From Octopus sinensis (taxonomy: Eukaryota): a DNA stretch of 64,000 nt. How positions within the stretch are numbered: the stretch's first letter is position 1; the number at the start of each line of letters is the position of its first letter. The stretch lies in NCBI RefSeq assembly GCF_006345805.1, contig NC_043020.1:23188001-23252000 (forward strand), written 5' to 3'. A program made the translations under genes and the position numbers. Under the pieces are notes generated by a model. That model did not search any database. It was not told the origin of the DNA and was given only the letters and a program-made list of their open reading frames with translations. This document shows, in pieces, positions 5,296-60,350 of this stretch.

Positions 5296-6205
5296 GATGG
5301 TTGAGTGGTTGACACGTTAGACATAATGCTTATCGGTATTTCGTCTGCGTTACGTTGTGAGTTCAAATTCCGCCGAGGTCGACTTTGCCTTTCATCCTTT
5401 CGGGTTCGATAAAATAAGTACCAGTTACGCACTGGGGTCGATGCAATCGACTTAATACCTATGTCTGTCCTTGTTTGTCCCCGCTGTGTTTAGCCCCTTG
5501 TGGGTAATAAAGAAATAGGTATTTCGGCTGTGTTTACGTTCTGGGTTCATATTCCACCGAGGCTGACTTTGCCTTTTACCGTTTCGAGGGCGATAAAATA
5601 AGTACTAGTAAAACACTGGGTTTAATGTAATCGTCTAGTCCATACCCAACATTAGTAGAAAGAACTTTTAATATTTAACCCTGGCGAAATGCTTAGCGGT
5701 ATTTCGTCTGCCGTTACGTTCTGAGTTCAAATTCCGCCGAGGTCGACTTTGCCTTTCATCCTTTCGGGGTCGATAAATTAAGTACCAGTTACGCACTGGG
5801 TCCATATAATCGACTTAATCTGTTTGTCTATCCTTGTTTGTCTTCTCTGTGCTTAGCCCCTTGTGGGTAGTAAAGAAATAAGTATTTCGTCTTGTCTTTA
5901 TGTTCTGAGTTCAAATTCCGCCGAGGTCGACTTTGCCTTTCATCCTTTCAGGGTCGATAAATTAAGTACCAGTTACGCACTGGGGTAGATATAATCGACT
6001 TAGTCCGGTTGTCTGTCCTTGTTTGTCTTCTCTGTGCTTAGCCCTTTGTGGGTAGTAAAGAAATAAGTATTTCGTCTTGTCTTTGTGTTCTGAGTTCAAA
6101 TTCCACCGAGGTCGACTTTGCCTTTGAACTAAGAACGTAAATACAAGACGAAATACTGCTAAGCATTTCGCCCGGCGCGCTAACGTTTCTGCCAGCTCGT
6201 CGCCT
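5296..6205 (+). mobile_element. Nested SINE-A arrays (Tx1-tailed units, one native-tail unit) ending in an inverted SINE-A head
   Basis: Units restart at (G/A)GTATTTCG after AAAGAAATA at ~5518, ~5881 and ~6066. 6123-6205 is an inverted head. Confidence 0.85.
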
Positions 6206-7174: not shown

Positions 7175-8409
7175 AAGGGGGAGGTTCGATCAAAAGGGAT
7201 CGTAAAAGGAGAGAAAGAGGACAAAAATAAGGGGGGTTAAAAAAAAAAAAAAAAAAAAAGGGGGGGAGAGGAAAAAAAAATGATCAATAGGGATCGTTAT
7301 CACAGAAATGTCAATATGAAGTGTAAAGGGGAGGACAGGTGAGGTTTACCCGTGGAAAGAAAAGCCTGCGGAAAAGACCACGGTAACCTCGGTCAATGAA
7401 GTCACATTTTATATTTCTTTTTTTTTTTTTTTTTTTTTTTTGCAAATAAGCAACTCTCTGTTTTCGATTTCTGGGTTCATAGGACTATGCTCAAGGTGGC
7501 TTCGTCATTCATACGTGCCATTCTTGCTACATTCACCCATCTTTTTTTAAAACATTCGCTAGACAAAACTTGCCTCTCTACTCTCACTTTCCTTTTCAAG
7601 TGGTACTTGAAGAAGTTGATGAGAGATTGACCAGAGAGGAAAGTGTTTGTCACCAATCCTTTCAGACGCGTCCACCAGATACATTCTTTCGCCATAGCCA
7701 CAAGGATGATGAAAATAGCTCTTCCTTCCCGTTTGAAGGAAGGAGGCGTGACAATATTGACGATAGACTCAGCTGATAAACCGACTCGCCCCACACGTGA
7801 CAGCAGTTGTTCGACATAAGCCCACAGGTCGGAAATTGTTGGACACTGAACGAGTGCGTGCAGAACGGTTTCGTCGCTCTGACCGCATCTCGGGCAGGTC
7901 GGCCCCGTGTTTCTCGAGCCGTGTCTGTAGAGCTTATCCCGAACGGGTAGCGCTTCTCGGTAGCACTGCCAGGCCAGGGATCTCTGGAAGTTGTCCATGG
8001 GCCCTGGCCCGAAAGTCGTCCCGAACAGGCGGGTCAGGTACTCCTCGTCGACGTCCAGGTTCGCCCCGAGCTCGTCGTCGTACCTCCCCTCCACTAAACC
8101 CCTATAGAATGCTTTGGTTGTGTTGAAGTCACTAAGGTCGACCCAGGACGGCAGAGTTGCTTGAGAGCAACGCGACACTCGCGGTGCCATTCGCCCTTCC
8201 TCGGCCTCTTTTTGATCCACGACTGCAGTTCGGTCATGGAGACGAGCTGCGGGAAAGCGTGCCTCACAAACGGCGACCACACCTGTTCACCGTCGTCTAC
8301 ATAGAGCCAGAGATGTCGCAGTCTCAGCGCGTGTCTGCGCATCATCAACCACGGCATGCCCAGCCCTCCTTTTAACGGGTGTGGACAGCAAATGGATCGC
8401 CTGACCAAG

Positions 8410-9151: not shown

Positions 9152-9963
9152 TAGATAGATAGATAGATAAATAGATTTATAAGTAGCGTCGAAAGTTTCC
9201 GTAGAAAGAGAGAAGTGAAAGAAGAGCGCTCTATCAGGTGAAGAGAGCTGAATGTTATTAACATTGTCTACCAGCACAGTTAGTGCTTTAGGTTTCGTAA
9301 TTCCTATTGTTAGACAACTATTTAATGCCCACGTATCATGTGGATTTCTCTTCAGTCGTCTTATCCGGAACTGATGAGAGATCCATAAGACACATAGGCA
9401 GGCTTAGTAGTTGGACGGAAAATACGAAGGCACTTACACAGGCTCGCAACGTCGATCGCTGTCAGAATGCCGGCTCCACGGAGCTGATCTCAGTTGCGTC
9501 CTGTCTGGTGAGAAGCCGGGGGCCGAAGAGAGAGAATAGCGGTGAAGCCCAACTGCTGCTGATGACTGCGCATGCGCATGAGGAGCTTCCGGTAGACCTT
9601 CCGGAAGACTAATCTCTGCGCATGCGGGAATGAAAATTCCAAAATGGCATTTGGAACGAGGCGTCGCTACGCACACAAACACACACGCATATATGTATGT
9701 ATATATATATGCATTAAGATGTAATCTATACTTATATTTATATATATTCTACTTATTATACAACATTACTCTTTTATGTACACTTTTTTATGTACACTCT
9801 TTTATGTACACTGATTTGTTCTGCTTTTTTATGTTTAACCCTACAGTCTCTTATGTGGTGGTTTAATAAAGTATGTGATTGAGTATTATCTGGTAATTGA
9901 TATTTGATTTAGATGTATTTCTCCATTTTCTTATCTTATATTCATATATATATATATAATATA

Positions 9964-10002
<39 letters not shown>

Positions 10003-10522: not shown

Positions 10523-11467
10523 ACACACACACATACATACATACATACATACATACATACATCTTTTGTTCTCACGTGACCGCTAGCCGCTGTTGAGCGC
10601 TCTTTTCGTTTCAGCAGTCGCAGAAGCAACACGTATTTGTTCGTCTCCCCGCGGCCATTAGGCACAACTTCACAAGCCAGCCCCATACTCAACTCGTCCT
10701 GTCGAAAGACCCTTGTCCTACGTCCTGGTTTTGTTCTGTTGTTTATTTTTTATTTTTACCGTTATTGTTTCTACGTTTTTGTATTCTTATTGGTGTCACG
10801 TATTCTGTATTTTTGTTGTTCGTGTACTTCGTTCGTTTTCTGTCCTCGTGTTGTATACATTCGAAGCTTTCTTCCAGGGGATCTAATGCGCTTGGCTTAG
10901 ATTTCCCTTGGCGGGCTGGCCATATCGGAGCAATCTCAAGATTAATCAGCCGAAATTGCTAAGATGATCTGGTTCTTGACTGATGACTGAGGGCTTCGAA
11001 TGTCCCGTCCTGTGGTTCTTGTGTCGTCTCTGTGGTGTTTCATGTTCTTGTCCATGTCTGTAATTATTTTTACTGTTTACCTATATATATATATATATAT
11101 ATAAAATGAGATAGGGGTTGAAAATTCAACCCACCATGGGATAATATATATCCAATATACTGCTAGATAGGTACCCAACAAAATTAATACATAGATGTTA
11201 AAAATTGTCAAACAATCAGTTCATCTATTGCATTATATGGGTAAAGGTAATAATATTACCTTAAATTAATACTACAAAATTAGAGAATGGAGAAATATAC
11301 TTAAATCAGTAAAACATCAACTATCCGATGATACTCAATCCATACTTTAATACACCATTACATATGAGTAAAGGCAATACATAAAATGAAATGAGATATA
11401 CAGTAATAGTAAAAGATAAAGAGATATAAGTAAAAAATTTTCAAATATAATATGCAAATAAATCAAA

Positions 11468-11577
11468 ACTGACAGCTGTTTCGGCAGTGAGGACAGTCAT
11501 ACCTCATTTAACCTATAAGCCATAAAGGCAGGTATAAATGAGGCATTAACAAGGATGCCCCACGGCCTCTTCAGAGA
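11468..11577 (-). ncRNA. Second copy of the hammerhead ribozyme, in the inverted arm
   Basis: Reverse complement of 14420-14530. Confidence 0.72.
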
Positions 11578-11951
11578 ATTAAATTAAATTTGTTATAATA
11601 GTGAAAAATATTATACAATCATATACATATAAATATAAAAATATAAAAATGTAAAATATAAAAACTTATACATCATAAAGCTACACTTATATAATAATAC
11701 ACATTTGTACAAAAAAGGAAGGTAAACAGAACAAAATAAAACAAAAATATAAATAGTGTATATATTAATATCAATAAGTACCGATATTATACATATTTGG
11801 CTAATAGTTTTTTTTAATATATATAAAAAAAAAAAAAAAAAAAAAAAAAAGGCTAACATATATGGAGATGAAAAATAATAATTAAATCCGTGGTACAGTT
11901 CATAAGATTCTAAAGCTATAAAAGTTAATAAAAATTACTATTATTACACAA

Positions 11952-12281
11952 TTGAGTAGTAGGGTGTATATCGGGGCAACTATGAATAGCATAAAACAAA
12001 GATGGAATTATCACAGATATACTTTTAGGAATAAAAATAGAATGTACTCTACAGGGCTAAGTGCATACATTTGGGAGCTTAAAAATAAGAACTTAGATTT
12101 TAGATTAAACTGGAAAATACTAACTTCAGCACCTGTGTATAATGGAAAAAATAAAAAATGCTCTCTATGTATTAATGAAATTTTCTTCATTATTAAAGCG
12201 GGTCGGCAAATTATTAACAACATTAATGAAAAAAACTCTTTTGTATTCATGGCTACCGTTCACCTTTCTAGATTCAAATAG
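11952..12281 (+). pseudogene. GIY-YIG endonuclease C-terminal fragment of a Penelope-like element
   Basis: VYIGAT...KQRWNYH...STGLSAYIWELK...WKIL...KCSLCINE; a terminal CIH appears after a frameshift near 12240. Confidence 0.85.
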
Positions 12282-13987
12282 AACTTAGCACTTCCACTAT
12301 TATTAATTTTTTAACTCCCTTCTTTAACTAAATATACCTGTGGTCTTCTATATTTCTAATATACAATTTATATATTTTATAATTTTATAATTTTTATAGC
12401 TACATTTGTATAATAATTAATGGATGTGTCTAGTATTATTGGTTTCTTGTTTTTTATATTGTGGTTTTTTGTTTGTTTTTAAGAGAATTGCAATATGACA
12501 TAAAATAACATATTCATTTTGGTACTTGCCTTGTAATGTGATTTTTGAAGTTTTCCAATATTGCATAGTATATTGCATAGTATAATATATATCTTGGGTA
12601 GATACCTAGCTCTGGATAATGTAATGATATTGTATAATATGTAATATATGAGAGCCTTTTGTGAGTTTGGTGGGTTTAGGTTGAGATTATAGGTTTTTTG
12701 TATGTGTTTATTTGGAAGGTTTTTATTGTATATTTGGTCTTTTTGTACTCACCTTAATTTGTATCTTATGCTATTCACTGATAAACCTTTTTCATTTTTT
12801 TCATTTTCTCATTTACATGCATATGCTTTATAATTATTACCAGCCTCTAATATTTAGTTTATATCTATAGTCTCTGGATCTGTACTTTAAACTATCCTTC
12901 CATACATATTTACTTTCAACAATATAACATATATATTCACTCTATTTATATTTTTTATTTATTTTCCATTTTATTGTAATATTATCAATTTTTGCATCTA
13001 GTCTTCTATTTATTATTTATTGCCTATTTAAGTGTAGATGTTTACATACATATCAAGTCATCTAATTTGCTACCTATTTATTTTTTACTTATTTACTTAT
13101 ACTGGGGTAGTTTTATACATACATATCTATCATTTATTTTATTTAATTTTAATAATATATGAATACATATATACTGGTTTGTACTACTTATAATTATGTG
13201 TATAACCGTATTTATTCCTTCGTATTTATTCCTTCTTATTTATTTTATCTCTTTTCATCTTAAGTCTTTATAATATAAAATTTATTTAAAATTTCTGTGA
13301 TGTTCTCATAAGCGTTTACATTAATACTTCCCCTTCTATTCTTTAATGCCTAAACTGGTATATTATGGCACTATATTTATTAAGTTAATAAGTGACTTAT
13401 TTATAATTTTAAATTAATATATATTTTATATTTTATATTTTATAATTTAGCGTACTTAAAACCATAACAAACTTACGATAAATCTAACAACCGTATGTTA
13501 CCTCTGCAACAAACCGGTGTTATAAATTTTAAGTTACCCATGAAATAAGTATCTGACTTAGTAACATACTGATATTTAAAAAATATATTTATATCTAAAT
13601 TAATATTTTATGGAAGCATGGATGGTTCTTCTTTTGTTATTGAGGCACAGTTATAATTTTGAAGGACTAAATTGTAGCATAGTTGCTTCCCTTTTTGTTT
13701 ATCTATGTGCTAGTTGTTGCTTGTAATTATGTATGTGTATAAGTGTATGTATATACATATTACTATGTGTGTATGTGCGATTGATCTGTAGATGCGTGTG
13801 TGAATATTGGCGTTCCCTGACTAACCAACCGTATAATTTTCTTTTGTGATTTAAATTTCAAACCAATAGCCAATAGAATTAATCTATATTTTCTTTACCT
13901 AGTGGTCAGCATTTCTTAACTCATAGTTATTTCGATCTTGTAAGGATGGACTTGGTGCTAACTTAACTGTATCTATTTTTTATTATA

Positions 13988-14046
<59 letters not shown>

Positions 14047-14419
14047 TATTATTATTATTATTAATAGTAATTTTTATTACTTTTATAGCTTTAGAATCTT
14101 ATGAACTGTACCACGGATTTAATTATTATTTTTCATCTCCATATATGTTAGCCTTTTTTTTTTTTTTTTTTTTTTTATATATATTAAAAAAACTATTAGC
14201 CAATATGTATAATATCGGTACTTATTGATATTAATATATACACTATTATATATTTTGTTTTATTTTGTTCTGTTTACCTTCCTTTTTTACAAATGTGTAT
14301 TATATTATATAAGTGTAGCTTTATGATGTATAAGTTTTTATATTTTACATTTTATATTTTTATATTTATATGTATATGATTGTATAATATTTTTCACTAT
14401 TATAACAAATTTAATTTAA

Positions 14420-14530
14420 TTCTCTGAAGAGGCCGTGGGCATCCTTGTTAATGCCTCATTTATACCTGCCTTTATGGCTTATAGGTTAAATGAGGTATGA
14501 CTGTCCTCACTGCCGAAACAGCTGTCAGTT
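14420..14530 (+). ncRNA. Type I hammerhead ribozyme (PLE-type) with extended stem II
   Basis: CTGAAGA (14424-14430), GGC...GCC, GAAA (14515-14518), palindromic CAGCTG, GTC cleavage triplet. An inner 12-bp stem ATGCCTCATTTA/TAAATGAGGTAT is present; stem I is short. Confidence 0.75.
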
Positions 14531-15579
14531 TTGATTATTTGCATATTATATTTGAAAATTTTTTACTTATATCTCTTTATCTTTTTACTATTACTGTATA
14601 TCTCATTCATTTTATGTATTGCCTTTACTCATATGTAATGGTGTTATTAAAGTATGGATTGAGTATCATCGGATAGTTGATGTTTTATACTGATTTAAGT
14701 ATATTTCTCCATTCTCTAATTTTGTAATATATATATATATATATATATATGTATTTATCATAGACATATATAATGGGCTTTATACATTTATTTGTGTATT
14801 ATTGATATAAATTTTCAGATATCAATTTTCTGGGTGCGTTCATGGTACAGTATAATCGATGGATTAGTTAATGCCATCGGTAATTAATGATTTGAGTAAT
14901 TGGATATGATAACATCCTCAAACGTCCCTGGTCTAACAATTAGATTAGCGATGATACATATTTAATTTAAATTACAATTGTCATTTTTCTTACTCTAATC
15001 ATAGATCTTTTACTTCTTTCTCTCTCCATATTTTTTGATGCCTAGAAGATATCCATTTATATTATTATTTATTTTCTATATCCGTCCAATTATTTTTCCC
15101 CATTTTATTTACATCGTATTTTACTTACGCTGCTTTGAGTTTCATTGGATTTATATTTCATTTATTTTGATTTGTGTAGGTTTATCTCCTGAAATTAGCG
15201 CTTGTGTAATTTATTATACCACCCTCTTTATGAACCATAGCTTCGTATACCATTTCAGCAATTCCAATGATACATAGTTGTATATTTTAGGTCTTATGTA
15301 GTCTTAGTATTAGAAAACATGTCATATATTTTAATCGTCTATTCATGAATGAATAAATCACCATGGAGAATCAACTGAAATATTACACACTCACACACAT
15401 ACAGACACACTCACATATTTATACATATTTGTATATATACACGTACATATACTATACATATATATATATCTACAAATGAATGACAACCGTTTCGTTTCTA
15501 TATACATACATACATACATACATACATACATACATACATACATACATACATACATACATACATACATAAAAAAATAATA

Positions 15580-28417: not shown

Positions 28418-29625
28418 GTCTATCTATTTATCTATCTATCAGCCTATCTACCCACATATATTTGTATCGATCCATCTCCATTGTCATGAAAATCACCCTA
28501 AATATAAAAAACAATGTTCTGTTCTAAGCAAGACCCCGCCAAAAACATCTGTTTATATAAATGAACAAGCTGTTTGTACATTCACAAAATTTTATTTGAC
28601 AAGTTCGAGAAACAACGAAAACGTTAATAATAAAGAAGAAATAAAAAGATGTTTTTTCCAAAATTCTGACAACTTTTTCTTAATATTCAATTTCTGTACC
28701 ACACACCTAACACCCTCTTCCTCTCTCTCCTCCTCCTGCCTCTCTCCCCCTCCCTCTCTCTGTCTCGCTATATATTAATATATACATACATTTGTGTGTA
28801 TGTATGTTTCTGTCTGTGTTTCTACCGCACCTCTGCTTGACAACCGGTGTTGGTGTGTTTACGTCCCCATAACTTAATGTTTCGGCAAAAGAGACCGCTA
28901 GAATAAGTATCAAGCTTAAGAAAAGCCAATGTGTTGTGGTCAATACATTCGACTAGATATTCTTCGAGGTGGTGCTCCAGCATGGGCGCAGTCTAATGAG
29001 TGAAACAAGTAAAACATAACCGATAAAAGACATGCAAACCCTCTCGCGTTTCCTTTCTCACTCTCATTCTTTCTCTCTCTCGCTCTCTCTCTCCTTTCAT
29101 TACTCTTTCGTTCATTCTTTCTTTTCTTTCCTTCCTTCTATCTATCTTTCCATCTGTCCCTCGTTTTCTATCCTTCGTTCTTCTTTCCTTCTTTCTTTTC
29201 TTCCGTCTTTCTTTTCCCGACTTTCTTTCTTTCTCTCTCCTCCCTTCTCTCTCTCTCCCTTCTTTACTCTTTCGTTCATTTTTTCTTCTTTTCTTTCCTT
29301 CCTTCTCTCTATCTTTCTTTCTGTCCCCTTTTTTCTATCCTTCGCTCTTCTTTCCTTCTTTCTTTCCCCCTTCTTCCTTCCTTCCTTCTTCCTCTTTCTC
29401 TCTTTCTTTCTCTCTTTCTTTCTCTCTCTCCTCCCATTACTCTTTTGTTCATTCTTTCTTCTTTTCTTTCCTTCCTTCTATCTATCTATCTATCTTTCTG
29501 TTCCCCTTTTTCTATCCTTCTTTCTTTCCTTCTTTCTTCCTCCCTTCTTCCTCCCTTCCTTCTTCCTCTTTCTCTCTTTCTTTCTCTCTCCCCCTCTCTC
29601 TCTCTCTCTTCCTCCCCTCTCTCTC
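28230..29625. repeat. (TATC)n array, SINE-B 3' half (28790-29030) and CT-rich low-complexity tract
   Basis: Seen directly. Confidence 0.9.
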
Positions 29626-34539: not shown

Positions 34540-35914
34540 ATGTCTGTTGAAATTATTCACGAAAGTAGTGCTCTTGAGGAGAGCAATGTTAAAAAATTTT
34601 CTGAGGTAGCCGCAACCAGCTCGTCGAGCTATTTAAAAGAATGCAAGAGGAGGGTGGTGATGTTAAAATATCACCCTCCGCCAGTATCGTGGAGACTGAG
34701 AAGCGGACCGTAGTGTTTAAAACTTTCTGTCCACAAAGCAGAAGGTTCAAACACTTTGAAAAAAGCACCATCGAGAAATGCCTGTCCCCGATTTGGAAGG
34801 ACATCGTGTACGTCGCCAGGGGACGGGCATATGGCACTGTGGATGTCCGCTTCTCGGGGGAGAAATGGCCCGCGGGCATTCTGTGAACCCCCTAAAAACC
34901 AAGGAGGTGGTACTTTTCCCAAGCTATAGGGGACGCAGGACGTCCCGGGTCAGGATTGTAGAAGCCCCGCCGGAAGTAGATCCGGTAGAGGTAGTGGCCG
35001 CCCTGTTATATAAAAGGGCGGACAAAATAAAAATACTAGAAGTAACATGCTCTACCCCTCGACTTTGGCTCGGGCGTAACATTAATATATTAATTCAAGG
35101 AACAGCGGAGGACCTGCAGCTCCTTCCTGAGAGGGTGCTCGTGGGCGAGAACGTAGCCCTCAGGGTACAGGTCGAAGGCCGAAAACCCACCTGTTACGCC
35201 TGCGGCAAAAAGGGCCACAATCGTGTAGACTGTCCAGACAAGCAAAAGAAACCGCAGACACCAGGCCCCTCAGATAATAAAAAAGTTCCTACCCTGGCAA
35301 ACACGCCTACCCCTACAAAAACAAAAAATCCCACTCCCGCTGTTACGGTGCCAACCCCAAAACAGACTGAAGAAAAAACCCAGCCCTCGCACTCACAAAC
35401 CCCTACACTATTAAAACCTCCCACCCCACCCCCCTAAAAACTGCGGCGCCTACCGAACAAACCATTGCCACCCCCAGACGATACCATGGAGTATCAGAGG
35501 GGGGATTTACACCAGTTCGTAAAAGAATTCGTGCAGCATCCCCGTCCACATCCCCTACAAAAATAATAAAAACAAAGACACACCACAGACACGGAAAAAA
35601 AAATCCCGCTCAACTGGCCCAGAAAAAGAAGACAAAAAAGAAAATGAACTCATATTAATTGAATTCGACACACAAGACAATACATAAACGATATTGTGGT
35701 TCAGCATCAGTCAGCAAGACTGTACAACAAATACAAAGATCGAAATAGACACGCGTGGATTGCGGAAACAACGTTCAAACAATTAAAAGACAGACACCCA
35801 AACGCCATCCGGCATATCGCGAACTTTCCGGACTATCTGAAGAAAGAGGAGAAAGAAGGGGCCCACAAACGTGTGGCGAGGTCGGCCCCCACCTCTCCAA
35901 CGAAACGTAAGTAG
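34540..35914 (+). pseudogene. Tx1 ORF1 (gag-like, CCHC zinc knuckle), frameshifted
   Basis: CYACGKKGHNRVDC zinc knuckle and Pro/Thr-rich linker; split across several frames. Confidence 0.88.
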
Positions 35915-35931
35915 AACTTTTACTTTTTGTA

Positions 35932-38900
35932 ATGGCTTCGCTTAACCTTGGTTGTTTAAATGTGCGTGGTCTGAGTTCGAAGTGGAAGCAGGCTTGTTTC
36001 CTCGACGACCTCAGATCACATAATATACATGTGATGGTTGCTACAGAGACCAAGCTGGACAGCCTACAAACCTTCTCGCCCCTCCTGAATGGCTACGAGA
36101 AAATCATGTCTCCTGGCCAGACCGGAGGGCGAGGGGGTGTAGTGGTACTGATCCGTAAAGACTTGGCTCTACAGACAAGTACAGTCTATGTAGACCCAGA
36201 AGGTGGGCTGGTCGTCCTTGATGTGACATACAACAGTAAGGCCTTCAGGTTGATCGGACTCTATGCACCTTGTGCTAGAGGCTTCCAAACTGATTTTTAT
36301 CGGCGCCTAGAGGGCTTTCTCGTGACGTCGAAGACTTTAGTGATATTAGGGGACTTTAATGCTATCGTTGACGTACACATCGATAGCGTTGGCTCGATCT
36401 ATAGGAAAGTGAACTCACGTCTCGTGGATCTGCTTAAGCGGTTTCAGCTGGCAGATCGTTACAGACTTGACCATCCGAACGTCCCAGAGTGGACCTGGAT
36501 GAGTGGCGACGGAAGGTTCAAGTCTTATCTAGACAGGATAGTGACAAGAACTAGAGATAAGTCTAGTTTTAGTTGTCCACAGCTCGTCCAGGTGCCCTAT
36601 ACTGACCATAGAATGGTCACGTGTAGACTGGACATAGATAGCACACTTAAGATAGGAACCGGCTACTGGAAGCTGAACAAGTCTATTTTGACACGCGAGG
36701 CATACCGTCCGGATTAAGGTGTTAGTGCAGAGGGCGTTAACCGGAGCCGTGGTTAATAACCGGTGGTGGTTCACCCTCAAAAGAGCCATTCGATTCGAGT
36801 CCATTAGATTTAGTAAACAACTAAGACTAGATAGGGCTAGAATAGAAGGGCAACTAGTTAAGAACTTAGAGGAGGCATTGAGGTTGGGCTCTGCGTCTCA
36901 CATTTTAGCGGCGAGAACGGCATTAGACCGTCACCTCAAACCAACATGAGGGATGTAGAGTCCGGGCTAAAGTACGAGCATTGGGCCGTGAGGGAATTAA
37001 TGTTGCCGGATGGGCCCGTACGATAGAAACACAGCGTGGAAACGATGCCACAATTGGGCCTCTTGTTGATGAAAACGGATGCACGATCAAGAAGCGGGAC
37101 GAGATGTGTGAGGCACTTCACAAGCACTTCGCCGAGTTGTTCGGGAGGTGCGGGACGCTGGATCATGGTGAGGCCCTTAGGGACTTCCTGTCTGGTGGCC
37201 CGCGCCTCTCGACACGAGAGGCTGAGTGCTGTGAAGGGCCAATCACAGCCGAGGAAGTAATCGAGGTGTTGGGCAAGTGCCCCGGGGAGAAGTCGCCGGG
37301 TCTCGATGGTCTGCCCTATGAATTTTATAGAAGTATGCCAGACTTGTTCGGGCACCTGCTGGCTAGCGTTTACGCCAACTGGCAGCAGAATGGGAGAATT
37401 CCCAAGTCTGCGAGCCGGGGGGCGGTGACGTTGATCAGGAAGGACCCGAACAAGGGGGACGAGATAGGGAACTTCAGGCCCATAACTCTGTTGAACACAG
37501 AGTTAAAGATTCTGGCCAAGGTGCTAGCAAAAAGGGGCGCGGGTCGTGGACAAACTTGTCGGGGAAGCGCAAACGTGCGCTATCCCCGGCAGAACGATCC
37601 ACGACAATCTCCACCTTATACGCTACTCCTTAGAGAGGGGGGGGAGCTTTCTGGCGCAGGGGGAGCACTGGTACATTTAGACCAGTCCAAAGCATTTGAT
37701 AGGGTCGACCATCGGTACCTAGCGGCGGTCCTCGGAGAGCTGGCCTAGGCCCGACCTTTCGAGGCTGGATCGCTGCTTTGTATAGCGACATCGAGTCTGT
37801 AGTCAAGGTGAACGGTTCCTTTTCGAAGCCGTTCAGGATCGAGCGTTCAGTTCGTCAAGGGTGTCCCCTGTCCTCGCTACTATACGTATTGGCTCTTGAG
37901 CCTTTGCTGCGGAAGTTGGAGGCACTAGGGGGCGCGCCGCATGATCTATAGTGTGGAAGAGGAGCTACGGCGTATGCGGATGACACCTCCATCATCGTGG
38001 CAGACGAAGGCCAGCTTCCAGTGGTGGAAGAGGCCATCAAAAGCTACGAGGCGGTGGCAGGAGCAAAGGTTAACAAGGACAAGTCGGTCGGTTTGCAACT
38101 CGGCACCTGGAGGGGCAAGCCGATGCCGTCCAATAACGTCGTAGGGCGTTGGACGGAAGGTCCTGTTAAGCTGCTCGGAGTCTGGTTCGGGCCAGACCTC
38201 CAGATTGAGAAAAATTGGAGTGAGGTGGCCAACAAGGTGACCGCTCTAACCCAGACCTGGTCTGGGCGGGCGTTATCCCTGCTAGGGAAGGCGGAGGTGG
38301 TGCAGATGTTTATAGCATCAGTAATCACCTACCGCCTGACCGTGGTGCCTTGCCCCGACTTGTGGCTGAACAAGTTGGAGAGAATCCTTTTCCGATTTTT
38401 GTGGAAAGGAGGAAAGCCACTTGTAAAGCGCTCTGTCTGCTGCCAGAAACCGCTAAAGGGTGGGCTAGGGATGCCTTGGCTGAGGATGCGAAAACTCGCG
38501 TTAAGGTTGAGGCACCTCTGGCTTTACCTGGATGGAGAGCAGGTGTGGTCACCGCACGTCCGGTTCTACCTTCCCCAGTTAACGGACATCGGTGCATGGA
38601 TCAAGCGGAGACCTAAACTGAGTGAATGGCATTTGGAGTGCCGTCAGGCGCTCCAGCTACTATCTCGGGTGGGCAACGCCGGCAACAGGAGTTCCACCAC
38701 GGATTTCTATAGCGGGTTAGTGGAGATTAAGTCCGAAGACGCCTGGGCTACGATGAAAATCAGTTGGTCAACCTATTCCGGAGGACGTTCGGGCCGGGGT
38801 ATCTGGATAATTACCAGAAATCCCTGGCCTGGCAGTGTTTCCGTGCGGCTTTACCTGTTCGCGACAAGCTGTCAAGGCACGGTAGTGCCGTCTCGCCGAC

Positions 38901-39303
38901 ATGCCCGCGATGTGAGCAGGATAGGGAGACCGTCTTGCACGCATTCGTGGAGTGTCCGGAGTTATCGGGACTGATAGCTTTTGTTGAACAACTGTTGTCA
39001 GTGATGGGAAGAGTACAGCTATTAGCTGAGTCTATCATCGAGATTGTGCCGCCCCCTTTTCTTAACAGGGAAAGAAAGGCTTGTTTTTTCTGTGTAGTAG
39101 CCATACTGAAAGAAACAGTATGGAAGACGCGTACGAAAGGTATAGTGACAGGCACCTTTGTCTCCGGCCAGGGGTTGATTAACTTTTTTAGTTACCACCT
39201 CAGTAGCAAAATCAGGCTGGAGAAGAGGTGTATGTCACGAGATATGTTTGTGAAAAGATGGAAGCCTGTGGCATACAAGATGGGTATGTTTGGCACCAGG
39301 TAA
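35932..39303 (+). pseudogene. Tx1 ORF2: APE endonuclease + reverse transcriptase + C-terminal Zn motif, frameshifted
   Basis: LNVRGL, ILGDFNA, SYLDRI, YTDH (APE); KSPGLDGLP, FRPITLLN, LDQSKAFDRV, RQGCPLS, AYADDT (RT); CPRC...HAFVEC. Confidence 0.95.
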
Positions 39304-43581: not shown

Positions 43582-43681
43582 NNNNNNNNNNNNNNNNNNN
43601 NNNNNNNNNNNNNNNNNNNNNNNNNNNNNNNNNNNNNNNNNNNNNNNNNNNNNNNNNNNNNNNNNNNNNNNNNNNNNNNNN
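43582..43681. other. Assembly gap (100 N) within microsatellite
   Basis: Run of N. Confidence 1.
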
Positions 43682-48294: not shown

Positions 48295-48515
48295 AGTCAA
48301 TATAGATAACACACGCACTGGTTCAGATCCACTCCTTTATTATTAGTCAATTGTTTAAATATCGAAATCCTTGATCAACTGTTTGTTTAACTTGGTTAAA
48401 CACTAAATCTTTTGTTCAACCGAGTTAAACAAGCAATCGATTAGTAAGTTGCATATTTAACTAACAGGCGAATAATAGACGAGCGGAACTGGACCAGTGC
48501 GTGTCTTATTGATTC
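48295..48515. repeat. Degenerate fold-back hairpin (MITE-like)
   Basis: ACACGCACTGGTTCAGATCCACTC vs GAGCGGAACTGGACCAGTGCGTGT; TGTTTAACTTGGTT vs AACCGAGTTAAACA. Confidence 0.7.
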
Positions 48516-49077
48516 TGTGATTCTGGCATAGTAATGATTCTCCCTAGATACAACAAGATTTGTTACAATGCGCAAATTCACATAAACATTCTTGCAAGCC
48601 ACATCGAAAAACAATATGTACATATATGCGTAGATAAAATACCTGACCGGTAATCAAAGTGATGCGAGTTTGTGTCTCATGGATGGTTGCTGAAATATTC
48701 TTCGCTTTATATGGGTATCTTATCCAATCTCTACATAATCTCTATATAATATACACACACACGCATACACACACACACATATATATATACACACACACAT
48801 ATATATATACATACAAACATACATACATACATACATACATACATACATACATACATACATACATACATACATACATGTGTGTGTATAATACATTAAAAGT
48901 GATCTTGAGTCTTGCTAGCTAGCTTGCAATGTTACCCAGCCAAACTGGCGCATAACTGGAAAATTCTCCGAAAATGACTTAACCTTGAAAAGGAAGAAAC
49001 TCTTACCTTCTTATTAGTCACAGTGATTGATTTGGAAACGAAAAATTACGATTTGGTTTTTACAGGAAATGTTTATA

Positions 49078-50025
49078 TTTTCAATAATAGAAATATTAAA
49101 ATTACTAAGTCTCTCTAAAAGAGAACAACGGCAGCGTTCCCGGAAAATATTAGTTATCGCCATACTAATATGGCATTCTTATAAAAATAAGAATAAAGCT
49201 GTCCGCTTATTAGCTCCATGAGGCCATCGCCTTAAGTTAGCTATTTGATACACAAACTGTATCCATATAACCTTTGAACAAGGGAGGTCAGTCGCTCCAC
49301 ACTACTTGGCCGGCAGCTACAGACGCGTTTCGGGGTATTGCCCCTTTTTAATGCAGCGTAGCCAGACCAGTAGGTGTCGCTTCTGACAATCTCTGTTCAA
49401 AGGTTTTATTTACCTAGCTTCGGTGGAATACATCCACTTGTTTTCAATAGAAATATTAAAATTACTAAGTCTCTCTAAAAGAGAACAACGGCAGCGTTCC
49501 CGGAAAATATTAGTTATCGCTATACTAATATGGCATTCTTATAAAAATAAGAATAAAGCTGTCCGCTTATTAGCTCCATGAGGCCATCGCATGGAGCTAA
49601 TAAGCGGACAGCTTTATTCTTATTTTTATAAGAATGCCATATTAGTATGGCGATAACTAATATTTTCCGGGAACGCTGCCGTTGTTCTCTTTTAGAGAGA
49701 CTTAGTAATTTTAATATTTCTATTATTGAAAACAAGTGGATGTATTCCACCGAAGCTAGGTAAATAAAACCTTTGAACAGAGATTTTCAGAAGCGACACC
49801 TACTGGTCTGGCTACGCTGCATTGAAAAGGGGCAATACCCCGAAACGCGTCTGTAGCTGCCGGCCAAGTAGTGTGGAGCGACTGACCTCCCTTGTTCAAA
49901 GGTTATATGGATACAGTTTGTGTATCAAATAGCTAACTTAAGGCGATGGCCTCATGGAGCTAATAAGCGTAGGCTTTATTCTTATTTTTATAAGAATGCC
50001 ATATTAGTATGGCGATAACTAATAG
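49078..50025. mobile_element. Hammerhead-containing 360-bp repeat in partial tandem plus inverted (palindromic) arrangement; retrozyme/PLE-like
   Basis: AAATATTAAAATTACTAAGT at 49091 and 49451 (period 360). Arms ~49147-49580 and 49590-50024 are near-perfect reverse complements. Confidence 0.88.
49816..49857 (+). ncRNA. Minimal type I hammerhead ribozyme, U3-A8 variant core
   Basis: Stem I GCTGCA/TGTAGC, core TTGAAAA, stem II GGGG/CCCC, GAAA, palindromic CGCG, GTC. Confidence 0.75.
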
Positions 50026-50865
50026 TTTATATTTTCGTTTTTGTTAAACACAAAATTTTAATCATTTACAAATATCTTAAAGTGAATGTAATTTCAAATA
50101 TATGTCTTGTTTGCACAGTATTTACATTTTAGCTCTCTTTAAACAGACAGTATTTTAATGTTTGTTTTTAATTATTTTCAAATGAATACAATTACAAAAA
50201 GTTTTTGGCATATTTTAGAAATATTTTAGAATGAAAAGACCCATTCGTAAAATAGGTTTTTTCATGGACTTTTTCGAGTGCATTCAACCTATCACACCTC
50301 GAAACATTTGGCTGCTATTTCTAACATGGCCTGCTACCATGTAGCAGCTATTCACGATAAAGGACCCTGAATAGCTGTTACGTGTTAGCAGGGCGTCCAA
50401 AGAATAGCAAGTAAATCTTTCTTTTCCTGGGGAGAGGAGCTGTTTTTACGCGTGATTTCGATGTCACATTCGTTGATAGCATACGAAATAACCTGGAAGA
50501 GAAAAATCCCACGAAACAAAACTCCGTTGCTGGGAAACTCAGACTTTCGCGGTGATCCCACGGGTCACGGGTAGCCAAATATATATATATATATATATAT
50601 ATACGTATATATATTATATATACTTCACACACACACACATACAAGGATGGCCATAAGTCGTTTTAGCCATTTCTATATTTTTATTAAAAGTGTGTAAACC
50701 GACTAATAGTGTGTATGTTAGTGTTCGCGCTTATTTGCCTGCGTGTGTGTGTGTGTGTACGTATGTATGTATGTCTCTCTCACTTTGTCCCTTTCACTTT
50801 AGCTCTCTCCCGCTTTCTCTCTCTCTCTGTATATATGCACACACATACACCACCACATATACACA

Positions 50866-53114: not shown

Positions 53115-53890
53115 AGGCGACGAGTTGTGGCAGAATCGTTAGCACACCGGGCGAAATGTTTAAAGATATTTGGTCTGCCACTACGTTTTGAGTTCAAATT
53201 CTACCGAGGTCGACTCTGCCTTTCAACCTTTCGGGGTTGATTAAATAAGTACCAGTTAGACACTGGTGTCGATGTAATCGACTTAATACATTTAGTCTGT
53301 CCTTCTTTGTCCTCTCTGTGTTTAGACCCTTGTGGGTAATAAAGAAATTGGTATTTCGCCCGTCGCTACGTTCTGTGTTCAAATTCCGCCGAGGTCGACT
53401 TTGCCTTTCATCCTTTCGGCGTCGATTCAATAAGTACCAGTTACGCACTGGGGTCGATATAATTGACTTAATCCGTTTGTCTGTCCTTGTTTGTCTCCCC
53501 TGTGTTTAGCCCCTTGTGGGTAGTAAAGAAATAGGTATTTCGCCTGTCTTTACGTTCTGAGTTCAAATTCCGCCGAGGTCGACTTTGCCTTTCATCCTTT
53601 CGTGGTCGATAAATTAAATACCAGTTACGCACTGGGGTCGATATAATCGACTTAATCCGTTTGTCTGTCCTTGTTTGTCCTCTCTGTGTTTAGCCCCTTG
53701 TGGGTAATAAAGAAATAGGTAGTTCGCCTTGCGCTACGTTATGAGTTCAAATTCCGCCGAGGTCGACTTTTTCTTTCATCCATCCGGCGGTTGATAAATT
53801 AAGTATTAGTTGCGTACTAGGGTCGATCTAATCGACTGGCCCTCTCTCCGCAAAATTTCGAGTTTTATACCTAGAGTATTAAAGAATATT
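53115..53890 (+). mobile_element. SINE-A nested array: three Tx1-tailed units plus a terminal native-tail unit
   Basis: Restarts at GGTA(T/G)TTCG at ~53350, ~53534 and ~53718. The last unit ends GATCTAATCGACTGGCCCTCTC...CTAGAGTA. Confidence 0.9.
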
Positions 53891-59590: not shown

Positions 59591-60350
59591 AAGGCGGCGA
59601 GCTGGCAGAAACGTTAGCACGCCGGGCGAAATGCGTAGCCGTATATCGTCTGCCGTTACGTCCTGAGTTCAAATTCGACATTGGCTTTCATCCTTTCGGG
59701 GTCGATAAATTAAGTACCAGTTTCTCACTGGGGTCGATATAATCGACTTAATCCGTTTGTCTGTCTTTGTTTGTCTCCTCTATGTTTAGCCCCTTGTGGG
59801 TAGTAAAGAAATAGGTATTTCGTCTGTCGTTACGTTCTGAGTTCAAATTCTGCCGAGGTTGACTTTGCCTTTCATCCTTTCGAGGTCGATAAATTAAGTA
59901 CCATTTACGCACTGGGGTCGATGTAATCGACTTAATCCCTTTCCCTGTCCTTGTTTGTGCCTTCTATGTTTAGCCCCTTGTGGGTAGTAAAGAAATAGGT
60001 ATTTCGTCTGTCGTTACGTTCTGAGTTCAAATTCTGCCGAGGTTGACTTTGCCTTTCATCCTTTCGAGGTCGATAAATTAAGTACCATTTACGCACTGGG
60101 GTCGATGTAATCGACTTAATCCCTTTCCCTGTCCTTGTTTGTGCCTTCTATGTTTAGCCCCTTGTGGACAATAAAGAAATAAGAAACTTTAGCACGCCGG
60201 GCAAAATGCATAGTGGTTTTTCGTCTGTCTTTATGTTCTGAGTTCAAATTGCCCCGAGGTCGACTTTGCCTTTCGGAGGCGATGAATTAAGTACCAATTG
60301 CGTACTTGGGTCGATCTAACCGACTGATCCGTTTCCCCAAAAGTTTCGGA
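59591..60350 (+). mobile_element. SINE-A nested array: three Tx1-tailed units plus a terminal native-tail unit
   Basis: Restarts at 59814 and 59997 (GGTATTTCG; two near-identical 183-bp units) and at ~60181 (AGAAACTTTAGCACG). Confidence 0.9.

Follow-up and report, generated by a model that had tools for sequence, protein, structure and literature searches.

A window of 64,000 nucleotides (64 kb) from Octopus sinensis (contig NC_043020.1, positions 23,188,001 to 23,252,000) was analysed. It contains, at 49083-50024, a single insertion bracketed by a 12-bp direct repeat. We read it, with a probability of about three in four, as a young insertion of a non-autonomous, hammerhead-bearing, retrozyme-like repeat of 363 nt that was integrated in trans by the reverse transcriptase (RT) and the GIY-YIG endonuclease of a Penelope-like element (PLE). 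Five features of this insertion are directly seen: the duplication of the target site, the head-to-head arms, the extension of the arms beyond one unit length, the one-sided tail and the absence of an ORF.

Structure of the insertion and its surroundings

The flanking duplication, which the earlier sequence-only reading of the locus had missed, was the only repeat of at least 7 nt in the boundary search, and it sits exactly at the ends of the unit homology (Table 1). In random draws with the composition of the flanks, repeats of at least 12 nt were reached in 4 of 50,000 cases. Because the left copy ends in 5 nt that are shared with the unit, the length of the duplication is 7-12 bp, and these 5 nt may represent a priming microhomology. 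If they are counted as part of the element, the duplication is reduced to 7 nt, a length that the null reached in 1,006 of the 50,000 draws.

The two arms are placed head-to-head, with their 5' ends meeting centrally in a 10-nt overlap and their 3' ends 65-70 nt apart. Inverted arms around a 9-nt loop had been described before, and they were recovered here at 49144-49580 and 49590-50028; the loop consists of unit sequence because the left arm extends 10 nt beyond the right one. This arrangement, inverted copies facing head-to-head across a palindromic junction and enclosed by a single duplication, is the one looked for in a non-autonomous PLE derivative. The period of 360 nt proposed in the sequence-only reading holds as the spacing of a direct repeat on the left arm (49086-49230 versus 49446-49590). 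However, the alignment of the four overlapping unit copies revealed that 3 nt are missing from the left inner copy and from no other, so the true unit is 363 nt and 360 is a local spacing only. The tandem form claimed for the repeat is likewise partial, with 1.4 and 1.2 units in the two arms and one hammerhead in each.

Table 1. Coordinates of the features of the insertion within the 64-kb window.
Feature	Position	Strand	Basis
Left target-site duplication copy, 12 bp	49071..49082	+	Boundary search
Right target-site duplication copy	50025..50036	+	Boundary search
Left arm, 508 nt (1.4 units), hammerhead-sense on minus, 3' end outward	49083..49590	-	
Right arm, 435 nt (1.2 units), hammerhead-sense on plus	49590..50024	+	
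One-sided, tail-like 3' extension, left arm only, 65 nt (70 with the microhomology)	49083..49147	-	
Palindrome loop, 9 nt, templated unit sequence, with 1-nt junction microhomology at 49590	49581..49589	.	
Complete repeat unit of 363 nt (41% GC), non-coding, with a branched self-paired fold	49590..49952	+	
Long imperfect rod prolonging hammerhead helix I	49768..49904	+	z -6.37, 0/200 shuffles; pair probabilities 0.68-1.0
Type I hammerhead, plus copy	49816..49857	+	Descriptor and folding
Hammerhead, minus copy, U3-A8 and G5A (49349), predicted inactive	49316..49357	-	

Over 428 shared aligned positions the arms are about 98% identical and differ by 5 substitutions and 2 gaps, scored as 5 events that include a 3-nt indel; three mismatches falling in the loop were left out of this count. 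Three of the 5 events could be polarised by a third copy, and each proved private to one copy, which argues for a young insertion. A single insertion event is sampled. No further match to the unit was detected elsewhere in the 64-kb window, which thus shows no autonomous partner homologous to it, a point that counts against the preferred reading.

As had been proposed, the repeat is non-coding. Its longest ATG-initiated ORF has 38 aa, and nothing convincing was found when the unit and its flanks were searched for coding potential. An autonomous PLE would harbor an ORF for RT and GIY-YIG endonuclease between its pLTRs, and none is present in the insertion; a profile derived from the best 150 PLE endonuclease relatives (described below) matched one of 2,070 six-frame segments, at a distance of 37 kb. 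The 23-nt ribozyme pattern had no match in 185,579 prokaryotic genomes, and blastn searches with the unit had none in 50,697 phage and 72,556 plasmid records, negatives that are expected for an animal repeat. With Rfam, the whole window gave no match at the gathering score, and none of the 24 weak matches obtained at E<=10 over 48900-50200 was a hammerhead. These weak matches, mostly to miRNA and sRNA hairpin models lying on the palindrome, were discarded as hairpin artefacts.

With a GC content mostly of 25-45%, the window is rich in AT; it has many microsatellites (124 rows) as well as LINE and SINE-like repeats, and has the look of an invertebrate animal genome. A LINE with frameshifts, encoding a zinc-knuckle ORF1, an APE endonuclease and an RT, occupies 34760-39303 (+), and a C-terminal fragment related to it lies at 7477-8286 (-). 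A SINE-like unit of 184 bp forms head-to-tail arrays of 2.7-4.3 copies each at 5336-6125, 53167-53837 and 59677-60181, within which the type I descriptor found no strict hammerhead motif; we take the SINE-like repeats of the window to be similar to those of Octopus. On both sides of the insertion there are imperfect long hairpins (48306-48509 and 50301-50421; 75% and 74% complementary), probably old MITE- or Helitron-like elements. No tRNA genes were found.

The hammerhead and its U3-A8 core

Hammerheads were searched for with a strict type I descriptor, designed post hoc from the motif itself, that required a helix I of at least 6 bp, a helix II of at least 4 bp and any Watson-Crick 3-8 pair. 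This descriptor produced a single match on both strands of the 64 kb and none in 200 block-wise dinucleotide shuffles, whereas a looser version matched two loci against a shuffle mean of 0.045. The match is the plus copy, for which intact stems and a U3-A8 pair had been claimed from the letters alone. Its helix I has 6 bp, its core (49822-49828) carries U3-A8 with all other positions intact, and its helix II, opened by G10.1-C11.1, has 4 bp and a 5-nt loop 2 ending in A; helix III is weak and palindromic (1-2 bp), cleavage is predicted after 49851, and an unpaired U1.7 is found at 49858. The three-helix junction, conserved core and 3-8 Watson-Crick pair that define the class are thus all found in the plus copy, whereas the minus copy falls outside the class through the loss of G5, confirmed here as G5A, and is also matched once the requirement for G5 is relaxed. 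The helix lengths correspond to the canonical geometry of metazoan hammerheads (PMC4209133), and with the unpaired U1.7 and the terminal A of loop 2 the plus copy carries the residues that would establish the loop 1-loop 2 tertiary contact (PMC11875169).

A loose U3-A8 hammerhead-like match at 28596-28630 (+), with a helix I of 4 bp, a helix II of 3 bp and a palindromic helix III, is probably due to chance, given the 0.045 matches per shuffle of the loose descriptor. A TATA-like word was noticed by eye around 35 nt upstream of the junction phase.

The geometry of the ribozyme bears on an alternative origin of the insertion, as a 5'-truncated autonomous PLE with a tandem hammerhead 3' end, in which the RT halted before reaching the ORF and which would require no independent non-autonomous family. 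In both arms, unit n is preceded by unit n-1 and not by ORF sequence. The hammerhead, with its helices of 6 and 4 bp, its U1.7 and no extra base after A9, has the canonical geometry that is tied to short tandem repeats and not to the minimal variants of PLEs (PMC4209133, PMC7229834). We therefore consider a truncated PLE unlikely, even though the architecture is PLE-like (PMC3846280), the hammerheads of metazoan PLEs are mostly solitary leftovers of truncated elements (PMC4209133), and tandem hammerheads in axolotl PLEs are mentioned (PMC7229834).

The U3-A8 pair is common to both arms and G5A is private to the left one, implying that the swap predates the insertion and was already present in the template. 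The variant core proposed earlier has precedents (PMC3088659, PMC4209133) and holds no surprise: U3-A8 is not new among natural hammerheads. Natural U3-A8 covariants have been reported, with a mention of earlier in vitro activity (PMC3088659), and about 1,300 U3-A8 motifs were found in Schistosoma mansoni through the Cercyon PLE, where the minimal motifs are paired on opposite strands, 100-700 bp apart (PMC4209133). The S. mansoni(4) row in the supplement of that paper is PLE-associated and has the identical seven core letters. The G5A change abolishes cleavage in another hammerhead (PMC4027429).

The U3-A8 core is probably a functional variant of the family, whose cleavage would require a dimer or the help of a protein. 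A different explanation is that C3U and G8A are chance changes accumulated in a dead donor copy of a family with a canonical consensus. Such decay would fit the fact that both changes are transitions, that the sample holds only one insertion event and that the left arm has since gained G5A, proof that cores do decay here; yet the plus copy has changed solely at the paired positions 3 and 8, which two random changes among 11-13 conserved positions would meet in about 1 of 55-78 cases (hand arithmetic), even before complementarity is considered, and the same core letters exist as a family in S. mansoni (PMC4209133). Decay appears improbable to us, to about the same degree as truncation. Our literature search, which covered text other than figures and had one directly relevant paper outside it, found no U3-A8 retrozyme of canonical geometry, and the C3U and G8A double change had no literature match under those names. 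A paper on PLE hammerhead variants is said to describe their cleavage as dimers, and may list more cases of U3-A8.

Predicted folds and products of the locus

In a transcript of the right arm, helices I and II are predicted with pairing probabilities of 0.94-0.99, and keeping the core open costs 1.1 kcal/mol. Helix III has a pairing probability of 0.0 in the monomer, and its palindrome can form an intermolecular duplex of -7.5 kcal/mol. The circular monomer reaches -118.7 kcal/mol, a value as low as which was found in none of 60 shuffles, and the monomers of the two arms have z scores of -6.8 and -7.8 (0/60 shuffles each), in agreement with the highly self-paired circular fold of retrozymes. 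The antisense strand folds almost equally (z -6.5 versus -6.8), and the counts of G-U pairs (4 versus 3 and 2 versus 3) favour neither strand; consequently, the fold alone is no sign of selection on one RNA strand.

A transcript of the whole locus is predicted to collapse into one long hairpin (-805.7 kcal/mol) that leaves helices I and II with a probability of 0.0. Read-through would hence generate an RNA hairpin of about 435 bp, in keeping with the long dsRNA envisaged earlier, and would erase the ribozyme fold. With a single ribozyme per strand and this fold erased on read-through, no monomer or circle can be released from the locus, and the inserted copy is a dead end, unable to excise a monomer. 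By definition, an active retrozyme comprises two or more units in head-to-tail succession, all with a complete hammerhead of their own (bioRxiv 10.64898/2026.07.22.740005), and the locus, with its 1.4 and 1.2 units, is accordingly classed as retrozyme-like and not as an active retrozyme. In the same source, 8 of the 9 retrozyme dimers assayed did not cleave.

In its strongest form, the sequence-only reading would make the locus itself a source of a 360-nt circular RNA. The size, GC content and circular fold of the unit do resemble those of retrozymes, but an active locus is very improbable in view of the single hammerhead on each strand, the left one carrying G5A, of the loss of helices I and II in the whole-locus transcript and of the two-ribozyme definition given above. 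Least credible of all is that the palindrome is a fold-back read chimera or an assembly artefact, one of the outcomes by which the sequence-only reading would have been overturned: the arms are nearly identical and the assembly of the window is gapped (100 N at 43582-43681, within microsatellites and 5.4 kb from the insertion), yet the whole structure is bracketed by a direct duplication, the arms differ by 5 events and in their end points, and the right flank is no mirror of the left one (best local match, 20 columns), so the chimera is rejected.

Probable integration by PLE enzymes and relation to known elements

For the preferred reading, integration by the enzymes of a PLE, the following course of events may be envisaged. 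Within an AT-rich target, the enzyme would nick each strand, the nicks being staggered by 7-12 nt, and the 3' end of the top strand would prime RT inside the RNA, around 240 nt downstream of the ribozyme site, possibly helped by 5 complementary bases. The RT would then pass an uncleaved or re-ligated ribozyme site and exceed one unit length. For the second arm there are two possible sources: another round of priming, at the opposite nick and 65 nt earlier on the RNA, to which we give slightly better than even chances, or a fold-back of the first cDNA, which we place slightly below even. Fairly likely, the template was a linear RNA that was transcribed from a tandem donor and whose 5' end lay close to the junction; a circular monomer would be the lesser, though still sizeable, prospect.

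Both arms run through an intact cleavage site and end beyond it, one after 173 nt and the other after about 240 nt. Each crosses the junction sequence once and stops at the second pass, the two stops being no more than 10 nt apart. If there were two primings, this shared stop would point to a linear RNA with a defined 5' end, whereas under fold-back a circle is possible. As predicted for a circular monomer template, none of the differences among the copies distinguishes unit n from unit n+1 in both arms. Tentatively, we entertain a more specific reading, in which the insertion is the fossil of a circular RNA of the retrozyme type that was copied by RT beyond one unit length and was integrated by PLE enzymes, with priming from each of the two strands of the target. 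On this reading the family would be an active, tertiary-stabilised animal hammerhead retrozyme of canonical geometry with a fixed U3-A8 pair.

The link to PLEs fits well with what has been described for these elements. The inverted pLTR overlaps the direct one by 15 bp, duplications are of 8-10 bp, a tail is found on one inverted repeat, head-to-head is the commonest form, and pLTRs suffice for integration in trans (PMC3846280), with PMC8557442 in agreement. At AT-rich DNA, both strands are cut and extended by a PLE protein, which uses uncleaved RNA and begins RT within it, at two sites lying downstream of the hammerhead, and priming requires no homology (PMC11167929); the 5-nt match of the present insertion may therefore be incidental.

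The window also holds an unrelated PLE remnant (11269-14730), with no sequence match to the 363-nt unit. Its inverted outer arms (11269-11946 and 14059-14730) are 97% identical, it has an AT-rich spacer of 1.8 kb, and its 3' end lies in (TA)n. A 119-aa ORF at 11922-12281 is a GIY-YIG-like endonuclease fragment, for which there was no Pfam match and no longer homologue in a word-index search (0/81 candidates); the sole route to its identification was a HMMER library search, which returned 3,146 relatives at E<=0.001. The motif CxxCxxE was present in 144 of the best 150 of these relatives, one example fuses RT motifs to the endonuclease, and a GIY-YIG match, weak and sub-cutoff, was obtained for 2 of 8 relatives scanned. 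The CxxC motif and the (TA)n end of the remnant resemble the Hydra clade as described in PMC8557442. As its inverted arm copies the far 3' end, second priming fits this remnant rather than fold-back. With this remnant, both EN+ PLEs and inverted insertions are documented for this genome. Older 3'-end fragments of the same family, both ending in (TA)n, are found at 1871-2070 and 9848-9988 (85% and 78% identity). By eye, a candidate atypical C3-G8 hammerhead was located in the remnant at 14424-14528 (+), with a mirror near 11470-11575 (-); its helix I would have 2 bp, its helix III is palindromic, a hairpin of about 85 nt prolongs its helix II, its fold gives a z of -2.57 (3/200 shuffles), and it is too long for the descriptor to detect.

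The repeat resembles metazoan non-LTR retrozymes (PMC7229834; PMC7761336; bioRxiv 10.64898/2026.07.22.740005) in its non-coding unit within the 150-450-nt range and below 50% GC, its type I hammerhead of canonical geometry, in which helix III is weak and palindromic, its self-paired fold, its insertion longer than a unit and its duplication, which exceeds the 4 bp of PMC7229834; mussel retrozyme units measure 350-390 nt. Unlike these retrozymes, it is arranged as 1.4 and 1.2 units head-to-head and not as a head-to-tail array, and has one ribozyme per strand with a U3-A8 core. With the pLTRs of EN+ PLEs (Pen2a/Pen3a of Adineta vaga, PMC3846280; Poseidon PAc, PMC11167929; PMC8557442) it shares the head-to-head arrangement, the short junction overlap, a one-sided, tail-like extension, the AT-rich target, the hammerhead upstream of the RT start and the uncleaved template, and its duplication of 7-12 bp compares with 8-10 bp in those elements. 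It differs from EN+ PLEs in lacking an RT/EN ORF, in a repeat that is followed by a further copy of itself, in its longer tail (65-70 versus the reported 30-40 nt) and in its canonical ribozyme, whereas theirs is minimal. The U3-A8 swap is shared with the S. mansoni Cercyon PLE hammerheads (PMC4209133) and with natural covariants (PMC3088659), and the opposite-strand hammerhead pair with the minimal motifs of S. mansoni. The Schistosoma motif has a 3-bp helix I, a 6-bp helix II, an extra base after A9 and no helix III spacer (PMC4209133), in contrast to the 6-bp helix I continued by a long rod, the U1.7 and the loop-2 A of the insertion.

The unit has the make-up of a non-LTR retrozyme and the insertion style of a PLE, and the element is neither an autonomous PLE nor, at this locus, an active retrozyme. 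The earlier assignment to a retrozyme or PLE family is retained as regards unit size, GC content, lack of an ORF, fold, type I hammerhead and PLE-like junction, and is abandoned as regards an active retrozyme at the locus. An inverted retrozyme insertion was not found by title or abstract start among the listed matches of the literature search, which covered text other than figures, nor did octopus retrozymes appear in a title among the listed matches for octopus hammerhead ribozymes.

The overall importance of the finding is modest. Retrozyme-size hammerhead units, U3-A8 cores and head-to-head PLE palindromes have each been published, and the value of the insertion lies in their combination. 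According to the review PMC7761336, animal retrozymes have no motif by which their mobilising partner could be recognised, and more-than-unit cDNAs are predicted; here, more-than-unit arms are combined with a junction, a tail and a duplication in the style of PLEs. For kinetic studies, the family would be a source of a natural ribozyme that combines U3-A8 with full tertiary contacts. If the insertion is indeed the fossil of a circular RNA, it would represent a direct insertion footprint of the partnership between retrozymes and PLEs, which the literature covered backs by co-occurrence and sequence kinship only, and if its end points recur genome-wide, they would offer a simple genomic test of the PLE-driven mobilisation of retrozymes.
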